DNA from: Sarea resinae
Lineage: Eukaryota
DNA length: 64,000 nt
Reading direction: 5' to 3'
NCBI GenBank assembly: GCA_026026165.1
Contig: JAPEUD010000001.1
Span: forward strand, 372,001-436,000
Shown: one piece after another, positions 4,100-63,447 of the stretch
Numbering within the stretch: the stretch's first letter is position 1
How the letters are laid out: every line of letters starts with the position of its first letter
Position numbers and translations under genes: made by a program
Notes under the pieces: generated by a model
What the model was told of the DNA's origin: nothing
What the model saw: the letters and a program-made list of their open reading frames with translations, nothing else
The model's database searches: none

Positions 4100-5190
4100 A
4101 TGTCAGATGGAGCTCGATCGCGGTCTTCGTCTTCATATCCGTTGTCTTCATCATCTTCCTGTGAGTATACCGCGATCCTCCCAACGACAGGGAGAGGCAC
4201 GGACGTTTAATTAACCACATCTGCATCCTAATTCTAGCTTTTCATTTCTTCGCCGGATTGGGTTCCGGTGTTCTATCCGCCGTATTACTTCAGCCCGCCG
4301 ACCTCCTTAAAACCCGTGTCCAACAGTCTGGCTCGGCCTCACTTCTCTCTACTGTTCGCGCCATCTCCCAAAGCCCGCAGCCATTGCGTAGCTTCTGGCG
4401 AGGCACCCTTCCGTCAGCTCTACGTACCGGCATTGGATCTGCGCTGTATTTCACCAGCCTGAACGCGTTACGGCAACATGTCGCTCGCTCCGAACTACTC
4501 GCGACTCGCGGCCTCGTGCCAGGGACCGAAAGGAAGACAGTGGGAAATCACTCTTCGTCGCTGCCAAAATTATCCAACCTAGCCAACCTATCAACGGGTG
4601 CATTCGCGCGGGCTTCGGTGGGCCTCGTCATGATGCCCATTACCGTCATCAAGGTACGGTATGAGAGCAGCTTGTACTCGTATCGTTCCTTGTGGGGAGC
4701 AGGATCCGACATCATGCGCACGGAAGGCTTGAGAGGCTTTTTCTCGGGCTTTGGTGCAACTGCCATCAGGGACGCGCCGTATGCTGGACTCTACGTACTG
4801 TTCTATGAGCAGTGCAAACGGCGGCTGAGCACATTGGCACATGCAGCTCCATTGAACTCTGAGCCGCGATCACCGGAAGCCATGAGGAGCAGTACATCGG
4901 TCTCGATCAATTTCGTATCTGGAATTCTGGCGGCCGGGTTAGCTACAGCGATCACCAACCCCTTTGATGCTATCAAAACTCGAATTCAGCTTATGCCAGG
5001 CGAGTACGGGAATATGCTTCAGGCGGGTCGGCGTATGGTTATACAAGATGGATACAAAAGTCTCTTTGATGGATTGATGTTAAGAATAACAAGGAAGGCG
5101 CTGAGCTCGGCTTTAGCTTGGACATTGTATGAAGAGCTCATTCGGAGGGCAGAACAGAAGTGGGAGGACAGAAAGGAGCATGTGCTCTAA
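4100..5190 (+). CDS. HEM25: Mitochondrial carrier, glycine transporter Hem25/SLC25A38 type
   Basis: ATG at 4100 and one intron (GTGAGT...TTCTAG). Three PX[DE]XX[KR] carrier repeats ([27 protein letters not shown]), plus '[11 protein letters not shown]' and 'RDAPYAGLY'. Confidence 0.88.
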
Positions 5191-10394: not shown

Positions 10395-12063
10395 AATGAC
10401 AGTCCTAATATGGGCCTTGTGATGGATATCTGTGTAGACCGGGGATAACAATTCAGCTGCTTGCTCGAGAAGAGAGAAGAGTGCAGAGTGGTTCATAAAG
10501 GCTGCCGTATCTCTACTGGTGAGGTGATGGGGTACCCTAGTACCGATAACGAGCCACCGACGTCCAGACTGGCAGACGGAATCCCCCTGGACATCATCCA
10601 TGGATTTTTGCGGACGGTTCCTTGCGCACCATCGTACCTGTACAGTCAAAGCACCCGAGCGAGATCGAACGGAACAACGTTTGTACGCAAAATACGACCC
10701 ATGATCGCGAGAATACAACAAAGCATTGTACTGTGTATGTAGCAGGGAGCAGCGGGACAAGGCCAGATCAGACTGGAATGCTTGACTGAACCTTCAGTAC
10801 TCTAACACTGGAAAATGAGGTAGCATAGTAGGGAGCACGATTTGTAGTACCTTGATGTAGAGGGGCATCTTCTGTGCAGTAGCATTAGGTACCTTAAGTA
10901 ATTCGTAGATACTTCTCACTATAGTGATAGAAGGACTACATCGGAGTACTCTACCTATAAGGGACAAAGCAGATGGCTGCAGTGGCGGCACTGAGGCGCT
11001 GACCCACTACCTACTCCTACTTCATCCGGGGCAACCGCGAGCAGAAAATATTGAAGCACCGAGGATTTGAGGCACGTTTCCTACCTAGTACGAGTACCTT
11101 ACCTGGTCGCTTGGGTACTGAATTAAGAGACGCCGATTAAGAGAATGAGGATGCCGCCATACGTGTGTTCGTACTTCACTTCTTACGATAGTGCCTCCTG
11201 ACTCCTAAGTTCTAGTTTAGAGCTCTCTCCTGCCTTTACCGTCCATTCCAAGGATGTCGTCCGTTTGCAACCATGATACCTACCGGGCAGGTATTCCTAT
11301 CACTTCGTTACGATTCCTATGGTTTCTGTAGGAATACGACACTGGAGCCCGAGTCTGGCTCTGGAGATCTCCGGCTCTTGAGTGGTTTCCCGCCGCAAGC
11401 GGATCGACGCCGGACGCACCCACTATGTAAGGTAGATACCGTAGATACCTAGACATCCATGCAAGTGGAGTACCCCCCTAGGTATTCTACGCGCCGTCGT
11501 CGCTCCTACTCCGTCATTCGTCATACGGATTATTCCTGCCAATTATGACCTTCTGCTGGCCACTGCAATGACTGCATTCTATTAGCCCTGTTGCTTTTAC
11601 TCCGTACTTCCGGTGATGCCGTGGTCTCCTCCACCGGCGTTATGATACTTACCTTGCATGCACGAACCGAACCAGCGCGTGCCTTTCTACATAGTACTCC
11701 GAGTAGACCATCGATGTACGAATGAGGTAGGCCAAAAACATTCAATCCCTTAGAAGTTAGGGAGAGTATGAGCGAATAATTAGTAGAACTAAAAGGAGAG
11801 AGAGTGCCTGCTGTAGGCTGTATAATCTATCCACGCCGAATTAAATCATTTCCATCCTCACCCTCATCCCTTCCATCTCTCTCTCACTCGCTCGCCCCAT
11901 CCAAATATCAAAGCATCACTCTCCTCCACCTCACCACAACCATCCGCCCTTTCACATTCATATAGCCATACTAAGCATCGCTACCTTCTCATCCAACTTC
12001 CATCACCATCAGTATTCTCATTCGATCCATAGCGTTACCAATCATCCAATTGAACACTCCATC

Positions 12064-15035: not shown

Positions 15036-15718
15036 TGTTCATGAAACCAAAGAAAAGGGCTTCTCCGTGGCAGAGTCCTGTAGCTGGCACAGGAAATGAA
15101 GGATATCTTGGAATCAAAGTCGGCCTAACGTTTCTGTCGTGAGAGGGTCATGAATATCTAGATCCTGTTGAGCAAAGATGTGATGCGAGGTAAGCAAGAG
15201 AGAGATCGAAGAATCATACTACAAGGCTTGCACTTCGAGTCGAAAGAGCGCCTCCCTCGGTATCTGAGCTGGACAGAGATCCGTGCTCAAGGAGCGGCAG
15301 GTATTCAAGCAGAACAGGTCGAGATGGTCAGAGCAGGTATGACCGACTGCTTCTACGATGCAGCATAGAATCCGGTACCGACAGTTGGAAGGCAAGAGCC
15401 CAGCGCATCGCGGTCACCACCCAAGGCAAGGTTGAAGTAAATAGCCCGAGGTACCTAGATCTGACTATGGTAGGTAGGTAGATAAGGTAGGTAGGTTGGA
15501 GGTACCTAGTCTGTTCAATGCTGTAGCACGTCCGCGGGCGACTGCCCTCCAGGAGACGATGCGGGGTGTGGATCTTCGATAGCCGAGACCAAAGCAGGTA
15601 CTCCGCGGCATCACTCTCAGAGACACCGGCAGTCGCTGAACTATTCAGAAGAGATGGAATGCAGAAGTCCTCCAGAGCTCCAGCTCTCCCTCCTCTCACC
15701 TCAGTAGACTAGGGCTCT

Positions 15719-24315: not shown

Positions 24316-25067
24316 GGTAGCAGGCCCGTATTGACTTCGACCCGCATGACGCGATATCTCTGACACGCCGACTCGAGGATGAAGATACGTGCCAGTCTCG
24401 GCTTGAAGAGTTGAGGGTCAGAGGGTCAGGAGGGTGTCGAAGAACGGTCGCGAATAGTTAGTCAGTGTTATGCAGCTGCTCGTTCGTGCCCTGACAATTT
24501 CTGGAACGATATCGCTAAACGGGATTGAGATAGTTAGGGATGATGGATGGAGATAGCGATCTGCAGGCCACAACAGCCAGCGGTCCACGACTGACAGCCG
24601 ACAGCGCAGCGAACGCGCGTGGGGAAACGTGTCGAGTAATGGAAGTCACTGCAGCCGACGACGTTGCGTGTTTCACTCGCGAGTACACAGTACCGCGCAG
24701 GAGGTACGGGGTACGAAGTACAGACCACAGTGATCCAAGGGGAAGGGGTACGGAGTACTGAGGTGCGACTGCTGTGGATGCACGACTACGAGATACCACT
24801 GAAGTACTTTGAACGACTATGATAAGGTGCCTTACTACCTACTATGTACCTTAGGTAAGGTAGGAGGTAGATAGGTAGGTACCGACACTGAACGCTACCG
24901 CAGTAAGGTACAGAACAAGGTACTCAGAGTACTTCAGTAGTAGGTACGGTCGATTTCCTTTCCTTATCAGATCGAGCCGGCATCAAATCTCATGAACTTC
25001 GAACCTCCACAGCAACTCGCAGATTTCACCAGAAGTCCAAGCAACTGCTCGGACGCTGATAGAGAGG

Positions 25068-34487: not shown

Positions 34488-36159
34488 ATGACCTCTGATG
34501 CACGAGTCGCTGGCGACCCATTCGCTGATCCAAGCGATTCGGACCAGCAGCGAGATGTCCTTGTCGCCCTCGAATCTACCCTGTCCGTTGGGAGGGATGT
34601 TTCCTTGTCCTTGGGGACCGATTCATTGATTGTTTTAGGTGAGATCCGACTACTACTTATGGCATACCGACATGGCCTCCTGGGACTGACTCACGCCTTG
34701 TAGATGAAAGCTTGGTTGGGGCAGATCGTGGCCTTTGTTGCGGCATCATCCCTCGTGGTAAGACCAATACGCGCGGCGCAAGGAGCTCTCCGATGCTAAA
34801 CAACCAATAGCACCCAAGACCACCTACGCTGTCCCCTTATATAACGTCCTCTGGGCCGAACTCACCGAATTTGATTTAACTATCCACTACGCACGGTCGC
34901 AGTCGCAGGACAGCGTTCGAGTCGCATTCATCAATTACAGCATCGAAAAGACGGAGAGAGCTAGAGCATCAGCATGGATAGCCAGGCTTTTAGATCGGGC
35001 GTACGGAGAAGCGCAGCGAGAGAAACGGATTAAGGTGTTGATCAATCCATTCGGCGGAAAGGGCGCCGCTCAGAGAAATTACGTACGGGACATCGAGCCG
35101 ATACTTGCTGCGGCGCACTGCACGATCGATGTGGAGCAAACCAAGTATCAGGGCCATGCTGTTGATATTGCAGAGAAGCTAGATATCGATGCCTATGATG
35201 TCATAGCGTGTTGCTCCGGAGATGGCGTGCCGCACGAGGTCTTCAATGGGCTGGCGAAGAAGGGAGACGCAAGGAAGGCTTTATCAAAGATAGCAGTTGT
35301 GCAGCTCCCTTGCGGATCAGGAAATGCCATGAGCCTCAACCTCAACGGCACGATCAGCCCGAGCATAGCCGGACATTGCTTGGTCAAAGGGCTCCGAACC
35401 CCCTTGGATCTCGTCTCAATTACCCAAGGCGACCGCCGGACATTATCCTTCCTATCGCAGTCAGTCGGCATTGTGGCTGAGAGTGATCTTGGTACAGACA
35501 ACATCAGATGGATGGGAAGTGCTCGCTTTACAGTTGGCTTTCTCGTCCGTTTACTTCGAGACTCTCTATATCCGTGTGATATCGCCGTTGGGGTTGAAAT
35601 TGCGGACAAGCCTTCCATCAAAGAGCATTACGAGCGTGAGGTTCAGAAGCGGACGGTAGCCAAAAACAGGAGGGAAACTCCGGCGGTGATCGAAGAGTCG
35701 GCCTCTACCGCGTCCAATGACTCCAATAGCTTGCCACCCCTAAGATTCGGAACGATCAACGATTCTTTGCCCAAGAGCTGGAACATGGTTCCCTATGACA
35801 ACCTGGGCAACTTCTACGCAGGTAATATGGCTTACATGTCCAGTGACGCGAATTTCTTTCCAGCCGCTCTCCCGGATGATGGGTATCAAGATCTCGTCTG
35901 CATAGACGGTGACATTAGTCGGGCAGCTGCGCTGCGTGCAATGTTAGCAGTGGAAAAGGGCACGTTCTTCAACTTGCCTTATGTGGGCTATCGGAAAATT
36001 ACGGGCTATCGGATTATACCTAAGGCGCAAGGAGATGGCTACATCAGTATCGATGGCGAGAGAATACCCTTCAAGCCTTTCCAGGCAGAAGTACATAGAG
36101 GTCTGGGCACTGTGCTCTCCAAAAACGGGCAGATCTATGAAGCTATGGGACCACCTTGA
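34488..36159 (+). CDS. Sphingoid long-chain base kinase (Lcb4/Lcb5, DAGK family)
   Basis: 'LINPFGGKG', 'CCSGDGVPHEVFNGL', 'QLPCGSGNAMS', 'ESDLGTDNIRWMGSARF', 'ISIDGE'. A small second exon encodes GLCCG. An alternative in-frame ATG lies at 34431. Confidence 0.92.
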
Positions 36160-36299
36160 GCTTCTTCTCTGCTGTCGACTCTCATGGCAGGTTTATCTAC
36201 ATGTTTGGCGTTTTATTTATACCTTACTATTGTCGATACAGTTGCGGAACACTGTTGTGCATAGCTAGCCATTGTGCATAGCTTAAGAATTTACGTGTA

Positions 36300-37620
36300 G
36301 ATTTGTAGTTTAGAACATAGATTCATCTCAATTAAAGTTACTAGAAAGCCTTACACCGATGCTATTACTATATGATTCTGTTTAGTGGTAGTAGCTAGGT
36401 AATTCACTCTCTTCTACTACGCCCTTATTATTTTAAGCAGCTCTAATATTTGTTCTAGTCTGTTCTTAGATCTCTCTGCTATATCCTCTCTTCTTAATAA
36501 TCTAGTTAGTTTAAAAATATTATCTAGCCCCTTATAAAGTCTCTCTATCTAATTAAACTTAACCTTGTTTACTCTAACTTATAAAGTAGTTCTAGCAATT
36601 TCTTATATAGCTAAATGTATATCTATTCACTCTTATAAAGAGCGCTAATATATTATAGGTAAATACAAATATATAAGGTAAGTATAAACTAGAATAAGCT
36701 AGGTTGTTAGTAATTTTAGTGTATATAGTAATACTTAAGGTAGATACTAAGGTTTACCTAGGTACTAACCTATAATATATAGATTGATTATTAGACTAGA
36801 TTATTAAATAAAAAAGAGAGTTATATTACTACTTATTAATAATTTACTAAAATATAAATAAGAAAGTCTTTAAAGAGTAAGTTATTATAAAGACTCTACT
36901 AATATAAGCTTTCTCGCTTAGTATATACCTATTAGGTTACTAATCTAGTAAGTAAGTACTTACTATATAGGTAGGTAGGTACTTAAGTATCTATACTTAA
37001 CTTCTAATATCTATTAGATCTACTCTTAGAAGTAAAGTTATTCTTTACTACCTCTTACTCTTACTCTCTAATTTTTTTAAGTGATATAACTTTCTAAGCT
37101 AAGAATAAAATGCCGACTGTAAGTTTACTATATCTCTTTAAAAGTATATTATCTTTTTTATACACCTTTAATCTCTAGCTTTTCTCTTTATAACTTAATT
37201 CTAAGAGAAAGTTAGAATTCTAAGACTTAGATTCTAAGACATACTCTAATATATTACCTAATATCACTTAAGAAGATAATTGCTAATACTACTTAAAAAA
37301 CAGTCTAATAGAAGTCTATCTTCTAACTCCTTACAACAATATACTGTATGTTTTCTTAGCTTATATAGAATTACTAGATATTCTAACCTAATACTAATGT
37401 TAATACCTTATCTAGAACTCTAAAATTGTCGACTACAAAGTATTACAACGTGGTGTAAGTCTTACCTTACTATCTATCTACTAGTGTTTTTATAAAACTA
37501 AGTATATTGTTAAGAAGAACAAGTGATTTCCTAGTACAACCTGTACAGCTATTTGCTATACTCTGTCAAGACAAAGAAAGCTCTTAAAGGTTGTAAGAAA
37601 ATAGCCTAGAGGTGCTAATG
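36300..37620. other. AT-rich island with RIP-type mutational signature
   Basis: Hand counts give 10/60, 15/60 and 16/60 G+C in the lines starting at 36781, 36481 and 37201. The lines starting at 36721, 36841, 36961 and 37021 have no CpA, TpG or CpG and are saturated with TpA. Flanks are about 50% GC. Confidence 0.9.
36378..36620 (-). pseudogene. Possible RIP-eroded coding remnant of unknown origin
   Basis: 43 open codons at 36548-36420 (IERLYKGLDNIFKLTRLLRREDIAERSKNRLEQILELLKIIRA), bounded by TAG/TAA codons that could be C-to-T products. Confidence 0.3.
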
Positions 37621-39109
37621 AGGAAAAGATACTCCGCACCTATCTCAAAAACGTGTCAGTCTTAGTCCAACGCTATCCATTCAAGACGAAGACAGACTAC
37701 CTGCAGAAACACCCAGGAGGCAGCCGAACCGTGGAAGATCAGATGGGGACGGAAATAGAAGTAGTGCTGGCATTGATCTGTCCCCTTCTCGGGATTCTTC
37801 AGGAAGCCGTGACCGGAGCCACTTGAGACGCGGCCCGCAGAAAGATTACAGGGTGAAGCTCTCACTTACTCGACAGACAGACACCAAGGATACCACCAGA
37901 CGCGCATCCACGAACGGAGATCGAGTACACAAGGTAAGCAAGATACATGACTCTACTTTCCGTCTCGTGTCTGTTTCAATTGACACCCTTCCATTTCTCA
38001 TAATCTTGCTCGAACTCACTATCCATGCACGTGATCCTAACATCAAACCAGATACAGGATCCGATTTATTCCAATACTCTGTCTACATTGAACACCTCTA
38101 CGTCTCTGACCAGGTAGGTCATATTGATTTTCACGCGGCTCTCTTTGCTTTACTAATTTCAATAGAGCAGGAAGTAGGGCTCAGATCTCGGGCGTGAAGC
38201 CTCCTCTCTATGTTCAGAACAGCATCGATAATGACTGGCCGATCAAAAACGGCTTCAATCTGATAGAAGCGTCTATCTACCGAGAAGGTGTCTCTCTCGT
38301 AGAGGAGGACTTCAATGCTGGTTGTGACTGCGACCCGCAGGGCTGCGAAAATGCGTCAGATTGTGCGTGCCTGTCAGAAACGGACCTGAAAGATTCTCCC
38401 TATCATACGATAGGCATGAAAGCAGGAACCCTAAAAGACGTATATCTGGAGGGATCGGCTGCAATCTTTGAGTGTAATCAAAACTGTGCCTGCGACGAGA
38501 ATTGCCCAAACAAACTTGTCCAAAAAGGCCGCAAGGTACCACTAGAGATATTCAAGACTCACAATCGTGGGTGGGGTAAGCCTTCGTTGTTTATGGTACA
38601 CTCTATTTCTCCAGCCCCATACTGACTTCTCTCTAGGTCTTCGAACCCTAGTGGCTCTGAGGAAAGGGGAATTTGTTGATACATACAAAGGAGAGTTGAT
38701 TACTGAAGAGGAGGCCTCTAGGCGTGACGCGAAGCGCCAAGTGAAAGACGTTTACACCTTTGCTCTCGACAAGTTTCATGGCGACAACCCTGACAACGAA
38801 AGACTGCGAGACAACAAATATGTCATCGATGGAGAGGTTCTTGGGGGTATTACACGCTTCATAAACCATTCTTGCGATCCGAATCTCCGAATCTTTGCCG
38901 TCTCTTACAACCATGCAGACTTTTGCATCTACGACCTTGCCTTCTTTTCCACGGAGGATGTTCCCGCAAGGACTGAGCTCACGTTTGATTATACTGGACA
39001 GGAGGCGTCCGATAGTATTCCAGACCGTACCTCTTCGGGAGTTAGTAAGGAGAAGATGACGAGGTGCCTCTGCGGCAGCGAAAACTGCAAGGGAGTCCTA
39101 TGGATGTAA
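37110..39109 (+). CDS. dim-5: Histone H3K9 methyltransferase DIM-5/Clr4/ClrD (pre-SET, SET, post-SET); proposed 8-exon, 465-aa model
   Basis: Pre-SET GCDC..C..CAC...IFECNQNCAC..C, 'RGWG|LR', 'RFINHSCDPN', 'ELTFDY', post-SET 'CLCGSENCKGVLW'. Proposed exons: 37110-37118, 37304-37345, 37416-37454, 37535-37592, 37629-37933, 38052-38113, 38166-38575, 38637-39109 (1398 nt, open). Family call is firm; the first four exons are inferred. Confidence 0.85.
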
Positions 39110-40007
39110 AGATGAAGAACCTTTGAGTGAGCATGGAGAAGTGGGGCCCGGAGAGCGATGGTATGGGACTCGACGTTGATAGTGATTCTCGATTTGGGAA
39201 TGCATGCCACCACAGGCAGACCATTGAGCTTGCACACTTCTCGGGCGTTCTTTTTCGGCATGATAGAGAGGATCTTCTCATGAAGCGTTTCGCTGTTCCT
39301 TCTTTTTCTTCGATGAGCTCAACAAGGCTGTATCAGGTAGCATGAAGATTGATACCAGTCCCGAGAGTTCTGCTATCCCACGGCCTAGGAGAGGATCCAG
39401 CTCCTCAACTCGTGGCGGCCACGGTGCGCCATGCTCTCCCGTGAAGTTGGTGATGTTATGCAATAGGCCATTAAGCACGAGCGGAGACGCCCCATATTCT
39501 CATCCTGCATCTTTCTGGTAGTGGCCACAAGGATCCGACAACTCGAGTATTGCCATCGACATGGGCAGTGTTGTGAAGCGAACTGCTGAAGTGAGCAAAC
39601 CATTCTGATCTCAACTGCCGCTCTTGGCGGGTCCAGGTTTAGCAAGTGCTCGAGGCCGTGGCACACTTGTGGCGGGCCGTTGGAAGTACGAATAGTGAAG
39701 CCGATTGTACATTCACGTAGGTATGTCAGTATGCAGCAGTTTTCTGATCCCTTCAAGAACTAGACTACTGGTTCAGTATCAGACTACGAATACATGGTCC
39801 CATGCACGAGGGTTCAGGTCCAATTGAATTCCACGGGTGAAGGATCTTCTGCATGAACGTCTCAGAACGCCTCATCACATCAATGATCAGATCAGAAGCG
39901 TCCGACATGACGCCAAACCGATCATCAAAGTTGCAATCGAGTGATGAATAGCCTACCTGCCTTACTTTGCCTGAACTTGCCTTACCTCCTCACCTTCTTA
40001 CCCCTCA

Positions 40008-61003: not shown

Positions 61004-62924
61004 TCGTCTCTTGATATACTCGTCGCGAACTCTTCTCTTCGTTGTCATGAGATGACTTGACGGCAAGTGTGAGACAGGAACCTCAATCATGGGTATCACG
61101 TTGGGATGGAAAAAGGCGTATTAAATGGAAGGGTTCTGCTTTATGTTCTAGGGTATGTGGGCATGGTTAATATGGGGATACCTTTTAACATCAATTTTTC
61201 CTCTCCTTTTCTCTTTTCTTTTTGGCCTGCACTTTCGGCGGGTGGCATTATCATCTCTCTATTGGCGAAGCAGGGACCAAGCAAGCGGCATGACCACGGA
61301 GTTATCAAGGTATCAGATTCCCTGTCTTTCTTTTCTCTGCCTCTCATTTAGATCTGTGGTATTACGTTAGCATAGCATTGCGTCATCTACAAGGCAGGAA
61401 TCACTGGGGACGAAAAATGCAGGCTTTGTCCTTCTTCACAACTGTATGCACCTGTAAGCAATTCTGAGCAATCTGAGCCATAGAGTTCTAGATGTAGCCC
61501 CCCCCTGGTTTGGATGAGGCTGTAGTCACACTACGCGTGCTGGATGCTTCGGTGAGCATTCGGCTATTTAATTCGCTGTTGCGAGTCCCTGCTGTAAATA
61601 AGGTATGAAGGGTTATCTCCCGGCCCACGACGAGAACCTTGGAACCCCTCTACTGCAGTACCTGCCGAGAGATGCACCAGGGTGTCGTATAGGTACCCCA
61701 TACAGATCTTGTACCAGAGAGAAGCCCAACGCTTTATTAGGACTACCTAGGTGGTACTTCGTGCTCCCCATCGTTCTCCTACTATGTACTCCGTACTTCG
61801 TATATGCCTACGGTACTCCGTACATCAGCATAGTTCAGTCAACCAATACCGAGCCCCGGGCCTGACTTCACTGCACTGCGCTGTCTCCACGCTGGGCACC
61901 GGACAGCGATCAAGCCCAACCTCCAGGCTGCTAAGCCGGTAACCCAGCCTGGCCGCGGCCCTCGGCCCCCGTATCCGTCGTGCGAAGAGGTACTCTACTC
62001 CACTGCGGTAGAGTACTCCGAGTACTCCCTGCTCTGTAACGGTATCATGGATATGATGGGCATTGAAGCTTGGCAGCCAGCCGGCCAGCAGCCGGCCAGC
62101 AGCCAACCCCCCGCAGGTCGCACCGCCACATGTCGCATCTGATTACTCAAGCGTGACGATCCCCGTATCTTCAATCCCTCCATCGCAACAAATCGATCTT
62201 CTTTTGACGGGTGGCGGCGTGCAAATGATTCATACTTGTCTGGCCAAGAGAAGCACTATCACTTCTTCTCCTTTTCTCGTTGTTTTTTGGCTCGTCGCCT
62301 GCAGGCCCCCAAGATTTGGAGAGGCTAACGACTCCTAATAGCGTTGGAGTGGCCACTTGGACCGCATTGGGTAGGCACGCTGGGCAAGACTCGGCGCGTT
62401 GTACGCATTGGGCTTCGCTACTTTGCTTCTGGGCCCTTCCTCCAGTCCTCTCCTCCTTCCTTCCTTCCTTCCTACCTTCCTTGCTCACTACTACTGCGCA
62501 GTACGGAACTCCTGACCTTTCAGCTCAACAGCTCCTCCACTATTATTTCCCCCTCCTTCCCACCTTGCCTAAGGGACCTTCCCAAACCCTTACAATACCT
62601 TACCTCACCTTACCTTCCGTAGGCTACTCGTACTCTACATGACTCTACCGATCACTCCCGTCTCTTCTTACCTATTTCTTCGCTAGTGGTGGCAGCCACA
62701 GAGGAACAAACACTTCCAACACATCGATACGTCTTGCTCAAGGTACACGCACATCAAGAGTCTCACGATCCACTCACGACAGGTACCACTACGTACCCGC
62801 TACAGAGTACTCTCCAGGGCTGTCGAGTACCTCCTGCTTGTTACTCCCTACTGTAAGGTGTTACCGGCCATTCTCGTTCCTCCAGTACTTCGTAGTCCTT
62901 CCAGGCTACTACTTCGTACATTCA

Positions 62925-62958
62925 TCACCATCACTACCACCACTACCACCACCACCAC
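62925..62958. repeat. Imperfect (ACC/ACT) trinucleotide repeat upstream of KIN1
   Basis: tcaccatcactaccaccactaccaccaccaccac. Confidence 0.75.
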
Positions 62959-63447
62959 TCGCCATTCACTCTCCACATACTACTCACTCAGCACTGCTTT
63001 CTTCGTGCATACCCACCACATATTGCCCGTACTTACCTACTTATACCACACTTGTCGTTATCACTCCCTTACCCACTACTGCAGTTCCCGGCAGCTGGCC
63101 ATCCATCTCACCACGAATCTCACCAGACTTTCCTTCCATTATAGTCCTGCCTTGTCTCATTTGGGGGGGCATTGCGCGTTCATCCTGGGATTGCTCGAGA
63201 TCCAAGCGATCCCAACCTATCGAATATCCCCGGGGTCATTCTTTCCCTTGACCTTCTCCCATCCATCGATGCCTTCCCGAACGGTCTGATTACCCGTATC
63301 TTTGCCCTCCGGGCTCAGCTGCGACCGGCAAAGTCATAGCAACCAAACTACCCCCATTCCATACAAGCATTCTCGCTCGACACTACCCAGATCTGAGAAC
63401 GCTCCGATCTCTTTCGTTTGACGAAGCTTGTTTGTACTCACATCATA

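Follow-up and report, generated by a model that had tools for sequence, protein, structure and literature searches.

In the Sarea resinae window (the whole 64-kb stretch of DNA that was analysed), the spacer between a sphingoid-base kinase gene (stop codon ending at 36159) and a gene for a DIM-5/Clr4-type H3K9 methyltransferase is filled by a block of AT-rich DNA that is probably a relic of repeat-induced point mutation (RIP). We infer that ~0.6–1.2 kb of spacer sequence between the two genes was once present in at least two copies during a sexual cycle, probably as a small non-autonomous transposon or a duplicated fragment. Such a copy would have been riddled by C-to-T and G-to-A changes, chiefly at CpA and CpG, and the mutations would have tapered off (‘leaked’) within a few hundred bases of single-copy sequence on either side. 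By analogy with Neurospora, the resulting AT-rich DNA probably now forms a small patch of heterochromatin, which would carry H3K9me3 and HP1 (with or without 5mC) beside the 5′ end of dim-5. Any influence of the block on dim-5 expression would follow from where it lies, and not from its being a dedicated sensor; on this account it is an ordinary genomic scar, suggestively placed. The features of the region are the following:

34762–36159, + strand: last long exon and stop codon of a sphingoid long-chain-base/diacylglycerol-type kinase (Pfam; open reading frame ending at 36159)
36160–36337, + strand: probable kinase 3′ UTR, which is also the left shoulder of the RIP gradient (end of an RNA contig at 36337)
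36300–37620, no strand assigned: AT-rich RIP-type block (GC content and RIP indices in 200-nt windows, dinucleotide observed/expected ratios)
36489–36512, no strand assigned: left arm of a marginal inverted repeat (repeat search, shuffle test)
37495–37518, no strand assigned: right arm of the same marginal inverted repeat (repeat search, shuffle test)
37622–37933, + strand: 104-codon open frame that lacks an ATG and abuts the block, its translation being rich in Ser, Arg and Asp (open reading frame list)
37934–38051, + strand: intron-like segment of the form GTAAGC...CTAAC...CAG, which holds the deposited start codon at 38025 (sequence)
38052–38113, 38166–38575 and 38637–39109, + strand: exons of the conserved DIM-5/KMT1 core, with Pre-SET and SET domains and a stop codon at 39107–39109 (tblastn of P0001–P0019)

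The GC content of the block is 0.21–0.31 in 200-nt windows, as compared with 0.504 for the entire 64-kb window. Two 1-kb bins (36001–37000 and 37001–38000) have GC contents of 0.322 and 0.363, with the remaining 62 of 64 bins lying between 0.464 and 0.574, and each of the six 500-nt windows with a GC content below 0.42 falls within 36001–37750. A sliding 1-kb calculation (mean 0.503, standard deviation 0.040) reached its minimum of 0.248 at 36501 and never fell below 0.455 outside of 35500–38500. These profiles, together with the stripping of CpA/TpG described below, confirm the original prediction of a single strongly AT-rich segment in the 64 kb. Its onset, placed by that prediction ~150 bp after the kinase stop codon, was measured at ~50–150 bp past that codon (36157–36159), where the GC content drops below 0.40 from ~36200. 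The proposal that AT-richness extends over all of 36300–39109 did not hold, however: it stops at ~37600–37620, and 37700–39109 displays an ordinary GC content (0.44–0.55) and a composite RIP index of −0.91 to +0.33.

Both edges of the block are graded. Its most saturated portion spans ~36500–37300, with shoulders (36200–36500 and 37300–37600) that are mutated in part. The number of CA and TG dinucleotides falls from 12–16 per 100 nt to 0–3 over 36500–37299 (0–1 in 36800–37099) and then rises again, producing a bell-shaped profile with shoulders of 300–400 bp.

Sliding TpA/ApT and (CpA+TpG)/(ApC+GpT) indices, which had been suggested as a check, revealed a RIP-type signature across 36251–37750. 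The five 500-nt windows in this interval have GC contents of 0.238–0.346, TpA/ApT (product) indices of 1.67–1.92, (CpA+TpG)/(ApC+GpT) (substrate) indices of 0.12–0.64 and composite indices of 1.05–1.79, and all five pass the three stringent thresholds given in PMC7882544 (product >1.15, substrate ≤0.75 and composite >0). In 200-nt windows the same block has TpA/ApT values of 1.5–2.4 and substrate indices of 0.00–0.74. The values in its core (GC ~0.24, product ~1.9, substrate ~0.13) agree with those tabulated in PMC7882544 for large RIP regions (GC 21–23%, product 1.6, substrate 0.2–0.3). More generally, the block resembles the RIP-affected AT-rich regions of Pezizomycotina (of the Neurospora type, as defined by van Wyk et al. 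in PMC7882544) in its GC content (~0.25), TpA/ApT ratio (~1.9) and substrate index (~0.1–0.6), as well as in its positive composite index and the preferential loss of C at CpA and CpG. It differs from the large RIP-affected regions (LRARs) defined there in its size (~1.3 kb, as compared with at least 4 kb) and in having no recognisable partner repeat or transposon. The RIP indices by themselves are not specific to the block, since the composite index exceeds 0.5 in a further 14 windows of 500 nt with normal GC content, three of which likewise pass the stringent thresholds; what distinguishes the block is the combination of GC depletion with CpA/TpG stripping.

Observed/expected ratios of dinucleotides within the block are 0.36 for CpA/TpG, 0.32 for CpG, 0.79 for CpC/GpG, 1.94 for CpT/ApG and 1.42 for TpA, as compared with 1.06 for CpA/TpG and 0.92 for CpG in the remainder of the window. 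The C-to-T erosion had been attributed to long-term methylation. The loss of CpA and CpG, accompanied by enrichment of CpT/ApG, is instead indicative of RIP in DNA that was formerly duplicated, rather than of general deamination of 5mC. The dinucleotide pattern also argues against a NUMT, which was rejected.

The kinase gene on the left of the block (Pfam matches to DAGK_cat, E 1.8e-23; DUF7493, E 3.7e-22; and YegS_C, E 3.2e-07) could be compared with another strain through a 479-nt RNA contig from a wood-decay metatranscriptome (run X2), which covers 35859–36337 and ends there. All seven differences between the two are T or A in the window and C or G in the other strain; their contexts (CpG three times, CpT three times and CpA once) do not reproduce the preference for CpA displayed by the core. 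On the right-hand side of the DIM-5 gene, A or T is found in the window at one of the seven listed differences, with six of the seven exchanging G/C and A/T and the other being a G>C change. Contigs from this run lie on 35302–35334, 35859–36337 and 39106–39420 only, and the lack of one on 36338–39105 (the block and the DIM-5 gene) says nothing on silence either way. The graded density of mutations on both sides of the block and the polarisation of the kinase gene and UTR differences towards A/T are similar to RIP leakage in N. crassa and at AvrLm6/NC3 of Leptosphaeria maculans, as described in PMC2973834, where leakage in N. crassa is cited as reaching at least 930 bp. The Sarea comparison involves one strain and a single 479-nt RNA contig.

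We found no partner copy of the block elsewhere in the 64 kb (no purine/pyrimidine 28-, 32- or 40-mer matches), which ruled out a duplicate or segmental duplication within the window as its origin. Neither LTRs nor long TIRs were indicated by purine/pyrimidine 28-mers, none of which are common to the block and the rest of the window, or repeated within the block, on either strand. Translations of the block in all six frames, read through stop codons with X, matched no Pfam family at E ≤10, those of transposases, reverse transcriptases and integrases included. The earlier statement that TIRs, LTRs and transposase motifs are missing is therefore supported by the Pfam and k-mer searches, save for one marginal 24-nt inverted pair. 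The best ungapped inverted-match score of that pair (15) was reached in four of 100 Markov shuffles; its arms enclose ~1,030 bp, where mutation is heaviest, and no target-site duplication is evident beside them by eye.

An independent Logan contig of 1,820 nt, assembled from a run that may correspond to the source sample, covers 36016–37835 with no differences. It crosses both edges of the block, ruling out a misassembly, and its depth of 415, as compared with 352–380 in the flanks, indicates that the block is contiguous and single-copy at 31-mer identity (a depth that speaks solely against a near-identical second copy). Another X1 contig agrees with the block from 36754 onward and is preceded there by 73 unlike letters, hinting at a second, diverged copy.

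The neighbouring gene is of the DIM-5/Clr4 type, as had been proposed. Its deposited model from a Sarea resinae MAG (P0001, 306 amino acids) contains Pre-SET (E 1.2e-15) and SET (E 2.6e-18) domains according to Pfam. In an alignment of 27 proteins it retains the conserved residue at each of the 44 invariant columns, among them N226, H227, S228 and C229 (the NHSC motif), Y268 and post-SET residue C293; post-SET residues C295 and C300 occupy nearly invariant columns (≥90%). The protein therefore has the Pre-SET, SET and post-SET regions and the catalytic NHSC and Y residues of the SUV39/Clr4/DIM-5 (KMT1) family. The catalytic gene is intact, and its core (38052–39109) bears no RIP signature. The block had been thought to end inside the coding region and to include 5′ exons, and neither statement was supported, as the block does not extend to any coding sequence that can be demonstrated: the deposited coding sequence starts at 38025 (the position from which P0001 maps), 405 bp beyond the block, similarity to relatives begins at 38182–38203 in tblastn searches, and comparison of the block with those relatives' N-termini and chromodomains yielded nothing significant.

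Between the block and this core, the open frame at 37622–37933 runs up to a GTAAGC donor that falls between two codons, and splicing from there to 38052 would keep the reading frame. Three RIP-type stop codons (TAG at 37604, TAA at 37613 and TGA at 37619) are located directly upstream in the same frame. Its codon-usage score is near zero (0.024, as compared with 0.001 for the next-best frame), and a word search returned no homologues at E ≤0.1. The only two matches of an exhaustive HMMER search, to repetitive proteins of 2,122 and 2,174 amino acids with 17 and 8 matched stretches, were rejected as reflecting composition only. Four spliced models, all of which use two or more perfect GTAAGT donors, join an ATG at 37110 to this frame. 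Judged by its sequence, the frame may be a current or former N-terminal linker exon and is regarded as a candidate for one.

Among 79 distinct metagenome loci returned, two (L003 and L010) have a kinase upstream of the DIM-5 match; composition was profiled for L001–L011, and most other loci match the SET part only, at 24–33% identity. The kinase–DIM-5 spacer of L010 contains a 560-bp block with a GC content of 0.18–0.23 that ends ~160 bp before the start codon. That block is not depleted in CpA/TpG (observed/expected 0.93), is RIP-like in part only, and has no detectable homology to the Sarea block (best blastn E 0.08; no purine/pyrimidine 24-mers in common). The L003 spacer contains an additional ORF and only ~300 bp at a GC content of 0.29–0.32, for which the composite index is negative, and in L002 no AT-rich block was seen in the 2.5 kb preceding the DIM-5 match (at 200-nt resolution) or across the locus (in 300-nt windows). 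The comparison of GC profiles at orthologous loci, offered in the original prediction as a means of support, thus gave a divided answer: an AT-rich block is present at L010 and missing at L003, and the one present is unrelated in sequence.

These comparisons bear on whether the block was ever duplicated, or is instead a natively AT-rich promoter or spacer, or DNA that spontaneous 5-methylcytosine deamination has eroded. AT-leaning spacers are likewise present at L010, L003 and L001, and the intergenic tracts of the window itself contain TpA-rich motifs of the GGTA type and have high TpA/ApT ratios at normal GC content. Runs of the GGTAGGTA type are also present in other intergenic tracts; GTAGGTAGGTAC (with up to one mismatch) occurs six times in the 64 kb, as compared with 0.12 expected, and TACCTAGGTAC occurs six times, as compared with 0.42 expected. 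These counts agree with the earlier remark that the block retains host-promoter-like runs resembling those of other intergenic regions, and because of them it could be native spacer instead of an insertion, although such motifs lack CpA, TpG and CpG and would outlast RIP either way. A GC content of 0.25 over 1 kb, however, is six standard deviations under the window mean, no other intergenic tract drops under 0.455, and neither simple AT-richness nor deamination irrespective of context would be expected to produce the strong asymmetry between CpA or CpG and CpT. We therefore find an origin without duplication hardly credible. The interpretation of the block as a RIP relic is favoured by the thresholds that it passes, the context-specific loss and the bell-shaped CA+TG profile, by the polarised differences in the left flank and the X1 contig hinting at a diverged copy, and by a DIM-5 core that lacks a RIP signature and keeps its invariant residues. 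Weighing against it are the lack of a partner copy in the 64 kb and of a transposon domain, LTR or target-site duplication (with a TIR that is only marginal), the contexts of the left-flank differences, and the AT-rich spacer of L010, which would not be expected from insertion by chance. Should it be a RIP scar and nothing more, the block is routine for an ascomycete genome; its main value would then be as a small, clean case of graded RIP edges beside an essential chromatin gene that escaped damage.

An unlikely, though more serious, alternative concerns the right half of the block (~37100–37620), which might be the RIP-eroded native 5′ part of the methyltransferase gene. A Clr4-type N-terminus (an ATG plus a chromodomain or chromo-like exons) would then have been destroyed by leakage or direct RIP, leaving the frame at 37622–37933 as a relic and a short DIM-5-type protein that starts from the ATG at 38025; in a milder variant, tiny 5′ exons would still be working within the AT-rich DNA. 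The syntenic L010 locus encodes a genuine chromodomain ahead of the linker and Pre-SET domain (Chromo E 2.9e-12, above the cut-off), and the closest relative, the Piccolia protein P0002, has a weak Chromo match at residues 32–74 (E 0.0039, below the cut-off). P0002, P0003 (from Thelocarpon) and P0004 (from Sarcosagium) are 494–577 amino acids in length, as compared with 306 in the deposited Sarea model. The open frame, with its in-frame splice onward, its missing ATG and the stop codons just upstream, fits this account, as do the spliced models from 37110 and the right shoulder of the block, which is milder than the core (3–6 versus 0–3 CA+TG per 100 nt). Direct searches for the lost sequence argue against it. 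No Chromo domain was matched by Pfam in 36250–37934, and Smith–Waterman comparison of the three frames of 36300–37700 with the L010 chromodomain exons and the N-termini of P0002 and P0004 did not rise above shuffles, with the observed score reached by 89 to 219 of 300 shuffles for four of five queries and by 38 of 300 for residues 25–80 of P0002. The best case in a RIP-aware codon scoring was matched by 14 of 200 shuffles. Two strings that resemble chromodomain remnants by eye, ‘KIVDYKVLQRG’ (37422–37454) and ‘Y*IF*PNTNV’ (37369–37398), were treated as chance because they lie in different frames and in the wrong order. The near-zero codon usage and missing homologues of the open frame also count against a lost N-terminus, the models from 37110 draw only 23–65 nt of coding sequence from the block, and P0003 and P0019 likewise have no detectable chromodomain, such that its loss may predate the block. 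Set beside the Clr4/SUV39-type and short DIM-5-type KMT1 enzymes, the Sarea gene presents the Pre-SET, SET and post-SET core; L010 has the complete chromo, Pre-SET and SET layout, whereas in Sarea no chromodomain is detectable between the kinase gene and Pre-SET, and the RIP block sits at its expected place. The pair of loci bears on the origin of the two KMT1 architectures, with L010 retaining a Clr4-type chromodomain where Sarea has the block.

The block has also been proposed to be a selected heterochromatin sensor, in which DIM-5 would place H3K9me3 on the AT-rich DNA, the mark would spread to the promoter, and dim-5 transcription would fall, providing negative feedback on genome-wide H3K9 methylation. 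We consider it a candidate, and a very unlikely one. If the block did silence or tune dim-5, it would represent a natural, DNA-encoded heterochromatin homeostat in a filamentous fungus, a question addressed so far, to our knowledge, in yeast mutants only; S. pombe is not known to have RIP. The main support for a sensor is position, in that the 5′ end of an H3K9 methyltransferase gene adjoins the sole block of the RIP type in the 64 kb, and the same spacer is AT-rich in one of two syntenic metagenome loci. That association was spotted post hoc, however, and if ~2% of the genome is of the RIP type (as in the window), we estimate that a few percent of genes would be so placed by chance. The L010 block, moreover, shares neither sequence nor CpA/TpG depletion with that of Sarea, L003 has only its short AT-leaning stretch and L002 has no block.

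The precedents invoked for such feedback exist, but fit loosely. Genes beside RIP-type AT-rich DNA are described in PMC3945186 as being repressed via DIM5 and HP1. In S. pombe, heterochromatin over clr4+ lowers Clr4, a case that is alike in concept (an H3K9 methyltransferase gene damped by H3K9 methylation) and that differs, as described in PMC4395908, in arising only in mst2 epe1 double mutants under selection, being lost in wild type, requiring a 3′ UTR region rather than the promoter, and involving no RIP-type DNA. The methylation monitoring sequence of the Arabidopsis ROS1 promoter similarly allows the promoter of a chromatin modifier to read the mark that it controls; according to PMC12228296, that element is 39 bp in length, is read by SUVH1/3, activates transcription when methylated and is experimentally established, whereas any sensing by the Sarea block is hypothetical. 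A broader proposal would make an AT-rich, heterochromatin-prone block 5′ of KMT1 a recurrent, selected trait of the kinase–DIM-5 pair (in Sarea and the distantly related L010), renewed by independent sequence in each lineage and exerting negative feedback on its own transcription, with the same event perhaps having turned a Clr4-type chromodomain enzyme into the short DIM-5 type in Sarea; this we regard as quite improbable.

A further observation concerns the junction of the intron-like segment with the first core exon, where a 15.8-kb X1 contig (depth 52) displays a ~90% match to 37980–38057.

One segment of the window stands apart in base composition: a block at 36300-37620, between a sphingoid-base kinase gene and the gene for a DIM-5/Clr4-type H3K9 methyltransferase (the DIM-5 gene). 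GC content in 1-kb bins was 0.322 at 36001-37000 and 0.363 at 37001-38000, with the other 62 bins at 0.464-0.574; the lowest 1-kb value, 0.248 at 36501, compares with a window mean of 0.503 (sd 0.040) and a minimum of 0.455 elsewhere. Sliding indices gave the block the signature of repeat-induced point mutation (RIP): 200-nt windows across 36301-37600 had GC 0.21-0.325, TpA/ApT 1.53-2.42 and (CpA+TpG)/(ApC+GpT) 0.00-0.74, and all five 500-nt windows across 36251-37750 passed stringent thresholds (product >1.15, substrate <=0.75, composite >0, as given by van Wyk et al., PMC7882544). Observed/expected ratios within the block were 0.36 for CpA/TpG, 0.32 for CpG, 1.94 for CpT/ApG and 1.42 for TpA, against 1.06, 0.92, 1.10 and 0.74, respectively, in the rest of the window. 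Such context-specific depletion is expected from RIP and not from context-free deamination of methylated cytosines; the CpA/CpG-specific loss and the CpT/ApG excess thus fit RIP instead of the long-term methylation footprint that had been proposed. The original prediction was correct that an AT-rich, RIP-type segment is present, with GC, dinucleotide ratios and RIP indices in agreement, but had extended it to 39109, and only 36300-37620 is confirmed. The catalytic part of the DIM-5 gene escaped RIP: it shows no RIP signature in sliding-window indices and keeps all 44 invariant columns of a 27-protein DIM-5 alignment.

The indices alone do not single out the block, since windows at normal GC pass them as well. 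The composite index exceeded 0.5 at normal GC in 14 further 500-nt windows, located in intergenic tracts where GGTA-type motifs abound, and three of the 14 passed all three thresholds. What sets the block apart is GC loss combined with CpA/TpG stripping; calling RIP by index alone in the Sarea genome would yield false positives. Stringent thresholds were passed at GC 0.51-0.52 by 500-nt windows within 62251-63000, 24501-25000 and 11001-11500.

Counts of CA+TG per 100 nt, 12-16 in normal DNA, fall to 9, 5 and 2 across 36300-36599, lie at 0-3 over 36500-37299 (lowest, 0-1, within 36800-37099), rise to 6 across 37300-37499 and are again 10-13 by 37500-37700. The block therefore consists of a saturated part of ~600-800 bp with partly mutated shoulders. 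An RNA contig from X2, a wood-decay metatranscriptome containing another strain (~98.5% identical), matches 35859-36337, and at all seven differences within 35944-36284 the window has T/A and the other strain C/G; two X2 contigs to the right of the DIM-5 gene (39106-39420) have A/T in the window at one of seven listed differences. Three differences lie in kinase coding sequence, two synonymous and one K/R. The polarized left-flank differences fit RIP leakage into the 3' end of the kinase gene, a functional gene, after the lineages split; for N. crassa, PMC2973834 cites leakage that extends at least 930 bp. The argument is somewhat weakened because the seven sites (three CpG, three CpT and one CpA) lack the preference for CpA that characterizes the core.

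A 1,820-nt Logan contig from a second run, X1, covers 36016-37835 with no differences, at a depth of 415 (neighboring contigs, 352-380); it follows that the block is contiguous with its left and right flanks and single-copy at 31-mer identity, although this evidence is non-independent in that X1 may be the source sample of the window's assembly. In a further X1 contig the match to the block does not begin until 36754 and is preceded by 73 unlike letters, and bins across 36711-37112 carry extra X1 depth of 36-48, a hint of either another, diverged copy or a second organism. A 15.8-kb X1 contig at depth 52 (main contigs, 350-415) matches the intron-like stretch 37980-38057 at ~90%, with G>A and C>T among the differences, and weaker similarity extends beyond it; this contig comes either from another, related organism or from an additional copy present in the sample.

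Nothing recognizable of a transposon is left in the block, in agreement with the original reading that it lacks TIRs, LTRs and transposase motifs. Six-frame searches with stops read through as X returned no Pfam family at E<=10. After purine/pyrimidine recoding, which is blind to RIP transitions, 36200-37750 had no 28-, 32- or 40-mer in common with itself or the rest of the window on either strand, and there is therefore no LTR pair, long TIR or local duplicate. The best inverted pair, a marginal one of 24 nt (36489-36512 and 37495-37518, 21 of 24 positions complementary), flanks 1,030 bp of the most heavily mutated DNA; its score was reached in 4 of 100 shuffles, and no target-site duplication was seen around it.

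The ORF upstream of the block, ending at 36159, encodes a DAGK_cat-type sphingoid-base kinase (Pfam). Downstream, the DIM-5 gene matches Pre-SET (E 1.2e-15) and SET (E 2.6e-18), and a 306-aa 'hypothetical protein' from a metagenome-assembled genome labeled Sarea resinae matches the SET-domain ORF 38636-39106 at 100% identity; the next relatives are Piccolia, Thelocarpon and Sarcosagium proteins (61-63% identity), followed by many fungal proteins named DIM-5 or SUV39H at source. We read the conserved part of the gene as follows.

38052-38113, plus strand, DIM-5 exon
38166-38575, plus strand, DIM-5 exon
38637-39109, plus strand, DIM-5 exon

The deposited Sarea model (P0001) starts at ATG 38025, 405 bp past the block, and splices out 38373-38423, and is probably wrong at both sites. 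The 17 in-frame residues that this intron removes line up with conserved positions in the Pre-SET region of relatives, so that the intron is probably an annotation error. The deposited ATG falls within a canonical-looking intron (GTAAGC ... CTAAC ... CAG): an open frame at 37622-37933 (104 codons, Ser/Arg/Asp-rich, without ATG) ends at a codon boundary with the GTAAGC donor and, past the branch site and acceptor, continues in frame into 38052, which would make that ATG intronic. Stops lie directly upstream in the same frame (TAG 37604, TAA 37613, TGA 37619). The Piccolia, Thelocarpon and Sarcosagium proteins are extended at the N-terminus by 170-270 residues whose composition is similar. The codon-usage score counts against coding (0.024, with 0.001 for the next frame and 0.106-0.188 for known exons); a word-based search gave no homologues at E<=0.1, and exhaustive HMMER gave just two repetitive proteins of >2,100 aa. 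Brute-force enumeration of spliced frames, with any ATG within 36300-37933 allowed as start, produced four models, all from ATG 37110 (MPT, then GTAAGT) and taking 23-65 nt from the block; because RIP-type DNA often contains strings of this kind, 5' exons inside the block are only possible. The predicted overlap with 5' exons is thus unconfirmed, and similarity to relatives begins only at 38182-38203.

Scanning metagenome contigs with the 27-protein alignment returned 79 distinct DIM-5 loci, only two of which have a kinase match upstream, L003 (62% identity) and L010 (54-69%). These two metagenome fungi keep the kinase-then-DIM-5 order (L010 2611-6889 and L003 1002-7044), with DIM-5 only 36-38% identical to that of Sarea. 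The L010 spacer is arranged as follows, in contig coordinates.

4044, kinase stop
~4440-5000, block of GC 0.18-0.23
~5163, DIM-5 start codon

The L010 block is poor in CpG (observed/expected 0.14) but not in CpA/TpG (0.93), and met RIP thresholds only in windows 4401-4700. The L003 spacer contains an extra minus-strand ORF and just ~300 bp at GC 0.29-0.32, where the composite index is negative. A third DIM-5 locus, L002, showed no such block in the 2.5 kb upstream of the match when profiled at 200-nt resolution, and across the whole locus none of the 300-nt windows fell below GC 0.36. Against the L010 and L003 spacers the Sarea block gave a best blastn E-value of 0.08 and no common purine/pyrimidine 24-mers. 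An AT block thus recurs at one of two syntenic loci, as independent sequence with a different dinucleotide pattern, which we take as a hint rather than a pattern.

The best-supported reading is that the block is a RIP relic: a sequence in the kinase-DIM-5 spacer would once have been duplicated and then hit by RIP, with mutations leaking into both flanks. A compatible but rather unlikely addition is that RIP eroded the 5' end of the DIM-5 gene itself. The L010 enzyme has a true chromodomain (E 2.9e-12), intron-split and followed by a linker and Pre-SET, the same layout as Clr4, and together with a weak Chromo match in the Piccolia relative (E 0.0039, below cut-off) this raises the possibility that a chromodomain-coding part was lost where the block now lies; however, neither plain nor RIP-aware alignment found a chromodomain remnant in the block.

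In Neurospora, RIP-type AT-rich DNA nucleates H3K9me3, HP1 and DNA methylation, and by analogy the block would be expected to do likewise. Genes embedded in such DNA in Leptosphaeria are described as repressed via DIM5 and HP1 (PMC3945186). Damping of dim-5 by the block is mechanistically possible, judging from position alone; that the block is a heterochromatin sensor feeding back on dim-5, as first proposed, we consider highly improbable. Of the precedents invoked for it, heterochromatin over S. pombe clr4+ exists but is a weaker parallel than had been suggested: it arises solely in mst2 epe1 mutants, wild-type cells lose it, and it depends on the 3' UTR region (PMC4395908). The ROS1 element is methylation-responsive, but there methylation activates transcription (PMC12228296), the opposite sense to the proposed damping. 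The block is an ordinary kind of feature at a suggestive location.

Runs of the GGTAGGTA and TACCTAGGTA types are strongly over-represented in the window's intergenic tracts (6 matches each, where 0.12 and 0.42, respectively, were expected), and those near 36971 and 36755 do resemble other intergenic regions, as had been noted.

7676, 15470, 24871, 28649, 36971, 63029 (also 8655, 36755), GGTAGGTA/TACCTAGGTA-type runs

At some sites, such as 15470-15510 and 24850-24885, they are grouped in short arrays, and the runs may represent a promoter-type motif of Sarea resinae.
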